Positions 20,029 to 57,969 of a stretch of 64,000 nt of DNA are shown here, piece by piece. The notes beneath the pieces were generated by a model. It was not told the DNA's origin and did not search any database. It saw only the letters and a list, made by a program, of their open reading frames with translations. Location of the stretch: positions 142,075 to 206,074 of the forward strand of contig CAWEXY010000021.1 in NCBI GenBank assembly GCA_963813135.1, read 5' to 3'. The position numbers were made by a program, and so were the translations under genes. Each line of letters begins with the position of its first letter. The first letter of the stretch is position 1. Source of the stretch: an uncultured Verrucomicrobiae bacterium (GTDB lineage Bacteria > Chlamydiota > Chlamydiia > Chlamydiales > Rhabdochlamydiaceae).

Positions 20029-20144
20029 GCCTGGCGACGACCTACTCTACCACACTCTTGAGTGCAGTACCATCGGCGAGGAAGGGCTTGACTTCTGAGT
20101 TCGGGATGGGATCAGGTATGTCCCCTTCTCTATGGTCACCAGGC
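20029..20144 (-). rRNA. rrf: 5S rRNA
   Basis: Reverse complement GCCTGGTGACCATAG...CCCATCCCGAACTCAGAAG...GTAGGTCGTCGCCAGGC. Confidence 0.95.
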
Positions 20145-20628
20145 AAAAACTTTAAAATATGGAGCGAAACACTATACATCTACTAAGAGATGTACTACTA
20201 AATTGAAATGGCGCCTGAAAGCGTTTGTAAAAAACGCGGCGTTCTTCATCAAAGCTTTTCGATGAAGAAAAATAAGATTAAGTCGATGGACCTATTAGTA
20301 TTGGTTAGCTAAACACATTACTGTGCGTACACACCCAACCTATCAACCCGGTAATCTTCCGGAGGTCTCATTGGGATACCTTATCTTGAGGGAGGCTTGG
20401 CGTTTAGATGCTTTCAACGCTTATCCTTTCCGAACATAGCTACCCGGCGATGCACTTGGCAGTACAACCGGAACACCATCGGTCCGTCCACTTCGGTCCT
20501 CTCGTACTAGAAGCAGCTCCTCTCAGGTATCCTACGCCCACAACAGATAGGGACCAAACTGTCTCACGACGTTTTGAACCCAACTCGCGTACCGCTTTAA
20601 TTGGCGAACAGCCAAACCCTTGGGACCT

Positions 20629-21041
20629 CTATCCGTTTTCCGATATTACTATCGGTGTCAGACTATTCCTTCACCGTATTCTACATTGTCACCAATGAGA
20701 AGTTAGGTGCGGGCCGTGTGATAGGAATCTTTGTAGATATCTCTATCTCACGTTGTCTCTGAAAAGACAACGCTCAGTCGTTAGGGGAGGCAATTTTCTT
20801 GGATCTTGATTCCATAGTTGAACACAGATTTTCAGATCGTATGTTAAACCGAAACCAAGTATCTGCTAGATGAGTGATTTACAAGCAGTACCAGAAGTAC
20901 CAACTTGTAAGCTCACGTAACTTCAGAAAATTCCTTTCCCACGGCGTTAACCTCTTACGAGGCATTCACCGTTTTGAGCCCGTTTATTACTCTAGAGTTT
21001 CCTCTAGAGAGAGAAGATTTTAACCTGAATGGTTATTGTTT
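20629..21041 (-). ncRNA. ORF-less group I intron (IA-like) at ~L2533, 413 nt
   Basis: Interrupts GGGGCUGGAGA|AGGUCCC; ends in G; P3 CGGGC/GCCCG; R AACGACUGA and S AAUAGUCUGA; extension between P7 and P3'. Confidence 0.85.
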
Positions 21042-21113
21042 TCTCCAGCCCCAGGATGCGATGAGTCGACATCGAGGTGCCAAACCGCCACGTCGATATG
21101 AACTCTTGGTGGC

Positions 21114-21150
<37 letters not shown>

Positions 21151-21293
21151 AAGCGACGGCGATTCCACTTTCTACCGCCGGATCACTAAGTCCTACTTTC
21201 GTACCTGCTTGACTTGTTGGTCTCGCAGTTAACCTGCCTTATACCTTTACGCTCTTTTCGTGATTGCCAACCACGATGAGGCAAGCTTTGAAC

Positions 21294-21328
<35 letters not shown>

Positions 21329-21601
21329 CAAACTACCCGTCTGGCACTGTCCATCATCCGGATTCACGGACCGATGTTAGATTTCCGACTCTTCAAGACT
21401 AGTATTTCAACGTTGACTCCAGAAGCCCTGACGAGCCTCCTTCAAAGTCTCCTAGTTATCCTACACATGAAAAGTCAGAAGCCCATACCAAAGTATAGTA
21501 AAGGTTCACGGGGTCTTTCCGTCTTGTTGCGGGTAAACAGCATCTTCACTGCTACTACAATTTCACCGAGTCTCTCGTTGAGACAGTGCCCAGATCGTTA
21601 G

Positions 21602-21652
<51 letters not shown>

Positions 21653-22323
21653 CATTTATGTTAGCTACCTATCGCTAGGTAGATCGGACTATATCATATC
21701 CCCCTGAAGCGGAGGATTCTGGCGTATAGTCTCTGAGGATTCTATCTATTACTTCTTGCAAAGTTCTTTTATGTTCTTTTCCTTTAGAGTTCGGATTCAT
21801 CCGATACGCTAGCGTGAACAACCGTATCAAACCTTCACGTGAGTGATGTTCTTTACGCTCTTCCATCGCTTTAACGATTTCTCTAAACATGAGAAAAGTT
21901 TCCCACTTTGCTGAGAAGATCATATACTTCTCAAAAAATGGTATCACTTTCTCATATAGTGACCGCCTTGATGTTATTGAAAACACTAAGACATTTTCAC
22001 TACCGGATTTCGGAACTATTCTTCCTGTTCCGAAAACATCTTTAGCAAGCTCCAAGAGCTTTATTCCGGCTTTATGTTGGTATAAGAAAAATTCAGGATC
22101 GAGATGCATCCCATACCTTACGGTGGGGTGCTCTTTTATCGATACTGTGAGAGATCCTTCTCCCTCGATAAAACCAGCCAAGTAATACTTGAGCTCTTGG
22201 GTAACAGATAGCCTTTCCTGCTGATTGTCTGCGTTCATAGATTGTCACCTTGCTAGGTACTATGACATACTCAGATGTTCCAGCATATAGCCAGATTTTC
22301 TAACGGCCATATCTAAGGATTTA
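21653..22323 (-). ncRNA. Group I intron (IB-like) at L1923, 671 nt
   Basis: Interrupts UAACGGU|CCUAAGGUAGCGAA; IGS GCCGUU gives the U-G pair; AUGCUGG/AAUCAGCAGG, CAGAGACUA/AUAUAGUCC; terminal G. Confidence 0.93.
21675..22238 (-). CDS. Single-motif LAGLIDADG homing endonuclease, I-CeuI-like
   Basis: YLAGFIEGEGS; DPEF, GRIxxKSGS and SLxEKVIPF segments as recalled for I-CeuI; same insertion site. Confidence 0.92.
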   Translation of the reverse strand: MNADNQQERLSVTQELKYYLAGFIEGEGSLTVSIKEHPTVRYGMHLDPEFFLYQHKAGIKLLELAKDVFGTGRIVPKSGSENVLVFSITSRRSLYEKVIPFFEKYMIFSAKWETFLMFREIVKAMEERKEHHSREGLIRLFTLAYRMNPNSKGKEHKRTLQEVIDRILRDYTPESSASGGYDIVRST

Positions 22324-24651
22324 ACCGTTATAGTTACGGCCGCCATTCACCAGGGCTTAAATTCAATGCTTCGCCTTGCGGCTGACATCTCCTTTTGACC
22401 TTTTGGCATTGGGCAGGCATCACACCATATACATCCCCTTAGACGGCTTTGCATAGTGCTGTGTTTTTGTTAAACAGTCGCCTGGGCCATTTCTCTGCGA
22501 CCGCCTTCGCTTCTTGACGCGAAGTCAATAACGACACAGGGCTCCTCTTCTCCCGAAGTTACGAGGGTAATTTGCAGAGTTCCTTAACGAGAGTTATCTC
22601 GCGCGCCTGAGAATATTCTTCCCACCCACCTGTGTCGGTTTTGGTACGGTCACCTTCGAACGACTAGAAATTATTTCTTGGAAGCATCGCGCTTCGTCAT
22701 CGGTTCCCCCGAGGGTTCCCCTTGTCCAATACCGGGTATTATGCCTGCCGGACTTACCTATCAGCCCTCCCCATACTCAAACGGACATTTCCAATCGTCC
22801 GCACGCTTAACTTACTTCGTCACTTCATTGCATAAATCTTACGGTGGCGCAGGAATATTTAACCTGCTTCCCATCGCCTACGCGTTTCCGCCTCGGCTTA
22901 GGGACCGGCTAACCCAGGGAAGACGAGCTTTACCCTGGAAACCTTAGGTTTTCGGCGAGAAGGATTTTCACCTTCTTTATCGTTTACTCATGCCATGCAT
23001 TATCACTTGTATGCGCTCCAACGCTCCTTACGGTACATCTTCACCGCACATACAACGCTCTCCTACCGCGCACTACTTACGTAGTGCACCCGAGATTTCG
23101 GCTCTATGCTTTAGTCCCGTATATTATAGGCGCAAAGTCTCTCGATTGGTGAGCTGTTACGCACTCTTTAAATGATGGCTGCCTCTAAGCCAACATCCCA
23201 ACTGTCTTTGAAACCTCACTTCCTTTCTCACTTAGCATAGAATTTGGGGCCTTAATCGTCGATCTGGGCTGTTCCCCTTTTGACAATGAAGCTTATCCCC
23301 CACAGTCTATCTCCCAGTGTCTTCCTGGTATTCGGAGTTTGATTTCCGTTGGTAGGCCGGTAAGCCCCCTAGTGAATTCAGTGCTCTACCCCCAAGAAGT
23401 TTTCATCTGAGGCTAACCCTAAAGTTATTTCGGAGAGAACAAGATATCTCCAAGTTTGATTAGCCTTTCACCCCTATCCACAGCTCATCCAAGACTTTTT
23501 CAACAGTCACTAGTTCGGTCCTCCACAAGGTGTTACCCTTGTTTCAACCTGGCCATGGATAGATCACTTGGTTTCGTGTCTAAATCATATGACTAAATCG
23601 CGCTTATTCACACTCGCTTTCGCTCCGGCTCCGGAACGTTGTCCCTTAACCTTGCCATATAACTTAACTCGCTGGCTCATCATGCAAAAGGCACGCCGTC
23701 AGCCATTCCCTCAAAGAGGGCATAGGCCTTCGACCGTTTGTAGGCTACTGGTTTCAGGTTCTATTTCACTCCCCTAACAGGGGTTCTTTTCACCTTTCCC
23801 TCGCGGTACTGGTTCACTATCGGTCATCGACTAGTATTTAGCCTTGGAGGGTGGTCCCCCCAGATTCAGACCGGGTTTCACGTGTCCGGTCCTACTCAGG
23901 TACCAATCGCGCCTCTTTGTCTTTCGTTTACGGGGCTCTCACCCTATATTGCTCACCTTTCCAGATGTATTCAACTAAGACTCTAAGTACGCATATGACT
24001 GGCCCTACAACCCCAGAGATACAAGATCTCTGGTTTGGGCTCTTCCCACTTCGCTCGCCGCTACTAAGGGAATCTCTTTAGATTTTTTTTCCTCTGCTTA
24101 CTGAGATGTGTCCCTTCAGCAGGTATCGCTTCTATCCCTATGGATTCAGGTATAATAATAGGAAATTACTCCTACTGGGTTCCCCCATTCGGACATCTCC
24201 GGTTCAAAACTTCTTTCCGGCTCCCCGAAGCTTATCGCAGGTTAGCGCGTCCTTCATCGCCTGTCGATGCCAAGGCATCCACCAATAGCCCTTAATAACT
24301 TAATCACAAAAATTTTCATCAAGTTAGCTAAAGTCTCACAAACATAAAATTTGTGGTAATTTAATCGCCGCTATTTTTACTTACTACAGAATTCACTTGC
24401 TAGAATTCCATACTCTCAAGCACCAATTTCATTTCAGTGAAATTTAGCTTTCCGCTATAAAATTGACTATTACTTAGAAATTTATTGACTTACCTGATCT
24501 ACATGATCTGTTCAGAGATATCTACTACTTCTCACTGAAAACGGAGAAATGATAATTCTATTAGTTTCGACTAGAGATAGGGAAGAATGAAGCAAAGCGT
24601 AAGCTTATCTCAACCTATGAAAGAATTGTGAGGTTCTTTTCAATTGTCCTT

Positions 24652-26208
<1,557 letters not shown>

Positions 26209-57675: not shown

Positions 57676-57722
57676 TGGCCAGAACTGGAATCGAACCAGC
57701 GACACAAGGATTTTCAGTCCTC
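57676..57722 (-). other. tRNA-Phe(GAA) 3' fragment = att site
   Basis: GAGGA-CTGAAAA-TCCTT-GTGTC-GCTGGTTCGATTCCAGT-TCTGGCCA; D-arm and 5' acceptor strand missing. Confidence 0.88.
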
Positions 57723-57969
57723 ACAAAACACTTCCGTCCAGTTCCTTAAATGGCCTTAAATCAACCAATATCGCCAAAGTATATAGTGAGTGAAAGTTTT
57801 ATTGCTAGAAGCTTTCGACAGCCAAGATCAATCTCTTTCAAGGTCAGGCAAGTAGCAGCTACGGCTATATTACGGCACTTGCTACTACGGAAATGGGAAA
57901 AATTTCAATACCCCTTGTGCACATGACAACCAGAGTGTAAACTAAGGATTAATCGTAGGAGATAAGGAA

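Follow-up and report, generated by a model that had tools for sequence, protein, structure and literature searches.

A group I intron family in helix 91 of bacterial 23S rRNA with a predominantly A-U pair at its probable 5' splice site

The 23S rRNA gene of the chlamydial genome studied here is interrupted after nucleotide 2533 by a group I intron that is probably spliced with an A-U pair at its 5' splice site. The U·G wobble is the near-universal mark of group I 5' splice sites, with known exceptions, and to our knowledge no natural A-U group I family has been described. The initial annotation had read a group I intron with an A-U pair from this DNA, and this reading is borne out by 120 relatives, by co-variation at that very pair and by the geometry of the guide region. 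A survey of 23S inserts at 2533, which the annotation had proposed as a check, returned at least 120 distinct relatives and identified A-U as the majority state of a widespread family.

The intron and its host gene

The analyzed stretch of 64,000 nt (the window) carries one rRNA operon on the minus strand, which according to Rfam and BLAST is the sole rRNA operon of the 1.83-Mb assembly, and the 23S gene is present in a single copy (one BLAST match in the assembly). The source genome is a metagenome assembly of 82% completeness. The 413-nt insert occupies positions 20629-21041 on the minus strand and interrupts the 23S gene after nucleotide 2533, a site number obtained by comparison with E. 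coli K-12 rrlB, in which the base at this position is U. The exon half GGAGA ends at 21042, AGGU restarts at 20628, and the final intron base at 20629 is G. A search with a group I model, also proposed at the outset, gave an Rfam RF00028 match that spans the whole model, with an E-value of 8.3e-6 and 30 bits, which is below the gathering score of 50. The fold of the insert has a stability z-score of -8.7 versus 100 shuffles. The operon and the intron consist of the following parts.

24653-26208, minus strand: 16S rRNA (Rfam)
20274-24305, minus strand: 23S rRNA gene, 4032 nt, with two group I introns (Rfam RF02541)
20029-20143, minus strand: 5S rRNA
20629-21041, minus strand: the L2533 group I intron of 413 nt, an IA type that has P7.1 and P7.2 (RF00028; boundaries from 86 complete relatives)
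21042-21046, minus strand: exon strand of P1, G2529-A2533, with the final exon base A2533 at 21042
21021-21035, minus strand: optional P1-loop hairpin, variable or absent in relatives
21010-21018, minus strand: internal guide sequence, 21010-21014 pairing with 2529-2533 (P1) and 21015-21018 with 2534-2537 (P10)
20990-21009, minus strand: P2, 8 bp with a GAAA tetraloop, directly after the guide
20977-20982, minus strand: 5' strand of P3, with its partner at 20710-20715
20941-20972, minus strand: P4, J4/5 (AAU), P5 hairpin and J5/4 (UAA), with the tandem A·A wobble-receptor motif kept
20784-20940, minus strand: P6 with the decayed ends of an internally deleted single-motif LAGLIDADG gene (alignment to relatives)
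20775-20781, minus strand: 5' strand of P7, G-binding site, with its partner at 20660-20665
20720-20772, minus strand: P7.1 (20751-20772) and P7.2 (20720-20747)
20666-20709, minus strand: P8 with an internal loop resembling the 11-nt receptor, then J8/7
20640-20655, minus strand: P9 hairpin with a GUAA loop
20629, minus strand: terminal guanosine (omega G), conserved as G in all 86 complete relatives
20625-20628, minus strand: start of the 3' exon, 2534-2537, P10 strand

All helices from P1 to P9 can be placed in the window intron. The guide (21018-21010) forms nine pairs with the ligated exons 2529-2537, of which seven are Watson-Crick and two are G·U, and U21014 of the guide faces A2533; this 9-bp pairing, the coordinates, the motifs and the terminal G are as initially described. 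P7.1 and P7.2 lie between P7 and P3, P5 is short, P2 is present and the gene resides in P6. Such a layout defines subgroup IA3, and by its layout alone the window intron may be regarded as IA3-like. Every sequence-level group I feature that was tested is found, except that the 5' splice site lacks the U·G wobble. The insert does not match an RNase III-type intervening sequence: it has a ribozyme core, and its ends do not form the single long closing stem that characterizes such a sequence. The segment GGGCUC after P2, considered as a canonical guide for U2528, was rejected; it is the 5' strand of P3. The base pair of P1 that adjoins P2 is G2529·U in 117 of the 120 members and G-C in the remaining three, though G-C would be possible, and this conserved reversed wobble may matter for the stacking of P1 on P2.

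The same 23S gene contains a second intron, L1923, with a length of 671 nt (window positions 21653-22323, minus strand), a canonical U·G junction and a terminal G. Its ORF (21675-22238) encodes a LAGLIDADG_1 protein of 187 aa. This intron can serve as an internal canonical control within the same gene. Elsewhere in the window, positions 57676-57739 on the minus strand score weakly as a tRNA in Rfam (29.3 bits, E 0.051), but ARAGORN makes no call there.

A widespread family at position 2533

When 400 scored genomes of the phylum were searched at the DNA level (genome G005 was unscored), six strong matches were obtained besides that of the window. All six share its insertion site and belong to the same order as the window, and one of them shows the 3' junction only; ten short matches of 20-44 nt (E 6e-4 to 8e-3) were discarded as chance. 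Interrupted copies of helix 91 were found at 96 GTDB loci. The P7 3' motif terminates the insert at 66 of these, and in all 66 a G directly precedes 2534. The other 30, without this motif, were set aside because they represent variants of the exon or assemblies that are broken. Starting from the 5' side, a scan of metagenomes yielded at least 120 loci. Of 182 rows, 41 were discarded because they are not introns, are truncated or score low (L186, C-G by eye, is one of these), and 141 introns with 120 distinct 5' ends remained, 86 of which are complete; L066, a short duplication, was not counted.

The named hosts are mostly Patescibacteria, joined by Chlamydiota, Chloroflexota and Omnitrophota. 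On the tree, the nearest named relatives of the window are Chlamydiota records, which points to a chlamydial host, and the window sits in a ten-member A-U clade with a support of 100/99. As this clade lies among mostly Patescibacteria introns on the core tree, the topology suggests that the L2533 intron moved between phyla. No ancestral pair is claimed, because the outgroup root is unreliable, with a support of 82, long branches and no P2 in the outgroup rows.

Individual records deserve mention. In a record titled Gammaproteobacteria (L043), the L2533 intron groups with Patescibacteria introns, which may be due to transfer or to mis-binning. The same-family genome G189 (L005 and contig C36) contains the 3' part of an L2533 intron together with an intron-free allele, i.e. 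mixed rRNA copies or strains. Many loci have further introns at L2500, L2504, L2593 or L2604 (e.g. L043, L068, L080 and L098; L161, L173, L191 and L194 are also multi-intron loci), which leaves exons of only about 30-70 nt around helix 91.

The pair at the probable splice site

Among the 120 distinct members, 79 have A-U at 2533, 28 have C-G, 8 have C·A and 5 have U·G. The guide base opposite 2533 thus pairs in 120 of 120 members, as compared to a mean of 66.1 and a maximum of 86 in 10,000 shuffles. The guide register was set from the pairs 2529-2532 and from P2 without using 2533, so that the pairing of 2529-2532 is partly given by construction.

For the evolution of the pair, a tree was used that comprises 117 of the 120 members (L180, L163 and L212 were left out), and from which P1, the guide and J4/5 were excluded or in which they were masked. 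On this tree, the pair type switches 11 times. In the independent pairs marked by starred branches, an A or non-A exon base is matched by a U or non-U guide base in five of five cases, which at p 0.0625 are too few for significance. A single clade of all U·G members is rejected (p-AU 7.7e-5). Sister contrasts include U·G beside C·A (L175), C-G beside A-U (L061) and U·G beside C-G (L203 and L229). Beyond 2533, all 86 complete members have a guide base that pairs with 2534, one of them by a U-A swap, and pairing at 2535 is found in all 86 as well. Both P7 strand motifs are likewise present in all 86, and the core is intact in all ten short members that lack an intact ORF.

U·G and C·A are the two known splice-site wobbles (PMC11417360). 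Since both of them fall exactly at 2533, this position is marked as the cut site.

A possible ruler

What could take the place of the wobble? Michel and Westhof are said to have formulated a 12-bp rule in 1990. In the L2533 family, 116 of 120 members, including the window, keep a spacing of 12 nt between the guide base of the site and the P2 tetraloop. The canonical U·G neighbors, which come from the same loci and reside at L2593, L2500 and L2504, have 12 nt in 20 and 13 nt in 6 of the 26 scorable cases (21 were unscorable). Of the 120 members, 110 have GAAA as their P2 loop, and a receptor-like P8 occurs in 77 of the 78 complete GAAA members and in none of the five with GUAA or GCAA loops. 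Among the canonical neighbors, GAAA was found in 5 of 26 and the receptor pattern in 0 of 23, a contrast that is biased, as the pattern was written from the L2533 family. Three complete A-U members (L094, L191 and L194) have GUAA loops and no receptor, and as these manage without the device and the pattern is derived from the family itself, the ruler is likely an aid and not a requirement. Judged from the conserved sequences, the interaction of the P2 GAAA loop with the P8 receptor is likely to compensate for the missing recognition of a wobble.

The A-rich J4/5-J5/4 motif is kept in most members. Its third J4/5 base is G in 100 of 106 members with Watson-Crick pairs and U in the window, whereas A is found in 4 of these 106 and in 8 of 13 members with wobbles (one mis-parsed). 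On the tree, the association of this base with the pair type is not significant (four independent pairs, median p 0.25), and a tracking of the pair type by J4/5 is a lead only. Going one step further, the L2533 intron might be a natural, efficient and protein-independent ribozyme that is indifferent to the identity of the pair, owing to the P2-P8 ruler and a slightly remodeled J4/5; we hold this to be possible rather than probable.

Splicing and its alternatives

In group I introns, the cut is made at a P1 pair that is docked on J4/5, and ligation proceeds through P10 and the omega G (PMC3984707, PMC11417360). The wobble G was believed to matter for the choice of the site through its free amino group (PMC1920249), and in model ribozymes a replacement of U·G often reduces the efficiency and yields cryptic products (PMC11417360). 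The L2533 family would no longer depend on this wobble. According to our model, the guide of the transcript would pair with G2529-A2533 to form P1, which would stack onto the 8-bp P2, whose GAAA loop would dock into the P8 receptor and thereby act as ruler. The phosphate that follows the fifth P1 pair, A2533-U, would reach the active site regardless of the kind of pair, and free guanosine would cleave after A2533. The guide would then re-pair with 2534-2537 (P10), the terminal G would occupy the P7 site, and the joining of the exons would restore the H91 loop GGAGAA. Such an ordinary two-step group I splicing is the likely route, and the odds are about even that a host or maturase protein aids in it. 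That the window intron is probably spliced is concluded from the invariant omega G, from P10 and the P7 strands, from their retention in ORF-less copies and from the single copy of the 23S gene. Three RNA runs (X2, X5 and X6) gave short contigs typical of rRNA from other organisms, with 60-145 nt for the longest pieces listed, and the flanking genes are almost uncovered; the joints across both introns bear other letters and therefore stem from other, intron-free organisms, and they were not counted as evidence of splicing.

What alternatives exist for splicing after A2533? The intron might be left unligated, so that it either stays in the mature 23S rRNA as an insert of the H91 loop or is only cleaved and leaves a fragmented 23S rRNA, an option that had been raised already in the initial annotation. 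There is a claimed chlamydial precedent in that Everett is said to have reported in 1999 an unspliced L1931 23S intron of Simkania. Watson-Crick pairs at the site are moreover disfavored in model ribozymes (PMC11417360, and reportedly the kinetics literature). Against this, even copies without an ORF retain the omega G, P10 and the G-binding site, and as these elements serve ligation only, their conservation disfavors retention as well as mere cleavage. In addition, exon and guide co-vary across the 11 switches and the 23S gene is single-copy, and we therefore regard an unligated intron as unlikely.

Splicing could also take place one or two bases further on. In the first case, the cut would follow A2534 and the intron would end in A; in the other, the cut would follow the second intron A, with G2535 as terminal base. 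To compare registers, the junction was slid along the 86 complete members with the exon length held. A cut at 2533 results in a terminal G in 86 of 86 members and in only 6 forms of the ligated loop, and GGAGAA is found in 41 of the 46 intron-free same-family genomes that show the site (121 were searched). In favor of the register shifted by one base, most members have a first intron base identical to A2534, which leaves the product unchanged in 83 of 86, and the register shifted by two bases likewise ends in G in 86 of 86; a natural intron without omega G is moreover reportedly on record, and Coxiella L1917 reportedly has a terminal A. However, the first shift requires a terminal U in L070, and 2534 is altered in three members, whereas the second shift places A at 2535 in 73 of 86, a position at which the intron-free alleles seen all have G (by search pattern). 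Both shifts break the 12-nt spacing, and the wobbles U·G and C·A are found at 2533, not further on. We consider such shifts very unlikely, and as neither of them restores a U at the site, the junction would be non-canonical in either case.

Still less probable is that faulty assembly accounts for the insert or its junction, or that the insert is a decayed, non-functional relic. The sequence does come from a metagenome assembly, the ORF is deleted, and the third J4/5 base deviates from the G of nearly all Watson-Crick members. However, a related intron occupies the same site in the six same-order genomes, and all helices can form. A 467-nt contig from a separate sequencing run (X1) crosses the 5' junction with six differences; this run could be related to the source sample. 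It contains an intron-bearing close relative, and over the flanks it does not contain the window strain.

Finally, a canonical splice after U2528, using a G in the 5' region of the intron and producing the loop GAUAGA, had been named initially as the result that would overturn the A-U reading; it is hardly credible, for although the window copy alone has a G at the matching 3' position and the GG of the P1-loop hairpin could weakly pair with C2527 and U2528, this register is contradicted by the terminal bases (G in only 20 of 86), by the diversity of ligated loops (36 different ones) and by the intron-free alleles (GAUAGA was not found among the 46 same-family genomes with the site), and 52 of the 79 A-U members have no G at all from the junction to P2, which makes a U·G pair impossible there.

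Presumed homing and a decaying endonuclease gene

A LAGLIDADG motif (strict motif) with at least 120 codons after it is present in no fewer than 56 of the 86 complete relatives, and the one ORF that was scanned, that of the intact relative L054, is a LAGLIDADG_1 protein (E 6.8e-10). In case of the window, the insert had been called ORF-less, and indeed there is no intact ORF, but both ends of a deleted LAGLIDADG gene persist in P6, where they flank the internal deletion; an intact homing endonuclease gene is absent. The chlamydial clade contains a graded series of this decay, from the intact gene of L054 via frameshifted or damaged to deleted genes, which comprises L007, L046, L024, L002-L004, L006, L125 and the window.

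The homing target is a pseudo-palindrome centered near 2530-2533. LAGLIDADG homodimers read the central bases of their targets loosely, and homing could therefore land on A, C or U at 2533. We infer that homing is the origin of the spread: a single-motif LAGLIDADG endonuclease would have brought the family to hosts in which 2533 is A, C or U. After homing, the guide base would have followed the exon base, under selection for a working ribosome.

In 49 of the 86 complete introns, P5 contains the right half of the intron's own homing site (AGGTCCCA, then A or G). This copy usually lies just upstream of a TATAAT-like box ahead of the endonuclease gene. It is found for example in L040, L043, L063, L088 and L150, whereas the window has no copy, and it is present in none of the ten short members without an intact ORF. 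I-TevI reportedly has a self-repression operator at its own promoter, and by analogy the P5 copy is a candidate for a promoter with a self-repression operator. Alternatively, it could act at the RNA level as a decoy of the 3' exon.

Comparison with known introns

The L2533 family resembles the IA-type introns at L2593 and L2500 (PMC1995217, PMC6125680): both groups combine a short P5 with P7.1 and P7.2, house the endonuclease gene within P6, agree in the motifs of P7 and J8/7 and, by our count, have the 12-nt spacing. Single-motif LAGLIDADG genes in P6 are described for the L2593 intron of Synechococcus (PMC1995217) and for archaeal IA3 introns (PMC6125680). The L2533 family differs in its insertion after 2533, in that a wobble is found in only 13 of 120 members and in that most members combine GAAA with a receptor-like P8, whereas the scorable canonical neighbors mostly have GUAA. 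The Cr.LSU intron of Chlamydomonas is reportedly likewise an IA-type 23S intron with a single-motif LAGLIDADG gene in P6.

The 23S insertions of CPR/Patescibacteria (Tsurumaki et al. 2024, PMC11270868) occur in the same hosts as most L2533 members and share with them the group I core, the LAGLIDADG_1 genes and the clustering of sites in domain V. The text of that article names the sites 1917, 1931, 1952, 2593, 2604 and 2657, and 23IS9-11 are given only in its figures, in which 23IS11 is labeled by the 2500 tick. The list of bacterial 23S sites in the initial annotation was thus incomplete, as 2604, 2657 and the three figure-only sites have to be added. The number 2533 is absent from the main and supplement text of PMC11270868, and the site may be plotted in its figures; in contrast to the present analysis, the sections of the article on which we draw contain no discussion of splice-site pairs. 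Our literature search, with a thin coverage of older and subscription literature, found no publications on L2533 or on natural A-U sites.

Hur and Waring reportedly described in 1995 a 5' splice site with a C-G pair for an intron in Aspergillus nidulans cox1 and for a relative. Like the L2533 family, these introns exchange U·G for a Watson-Crick pair, but they are isolated cases in a protein gene, whereas L2533 is an rRNA family with a majority of A-U and four interconverting pairs. Like those at L2533, the introns of Simkania and Coxiella belong to group I and interrupt the 23S gene in bacteria that are associated with hosts; they lie at other sites, and in Coxiella it is reportedly the “universal” omega G that is lost, whereas L2533 introns keep it and deviate at the 5' pair. 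The Simkania negevensis L1931 and Coxiella burnetii L1917/L1951 introns are tabulated in PMC1995217. Engineered Tetrahymena and Pneumocystis ribozymes accept C·A (PMC11417360), the pair that is used by eight natural L2533 members; however, according to the same article, these ribozymes work best with U·G and their alternatives are wobbles, whereas the L2533 family mostly uses Watson-Crick pairs.

Implications

The site in helix 91 is an apparently unlisted position of 23S introns. U·G is commonly used for calling intron boundaries, and a U-based calling would misannotate the L2533 introns. The wobble also restricts engineered ribozymes to targets that end in U or, less well, in C. With at least 120 natural introns, mostly A-U, and about 11 switches, the family constitutes a natural series on the weight of the wobble and on what may substitute for it, and close relatives with different pairs permit a direct comparison in vitro. 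If the reading as a pair-indifferent ribozyme is true, the family would offer a ready ribozyme for trans-splicing or circularization after A, C or U as well as a natural test of the contribution that the wobble makes to catalysis. If splicing is confirmed, one of the strictest rules of group I ribozymes would turn out to have been relaxed in nature.
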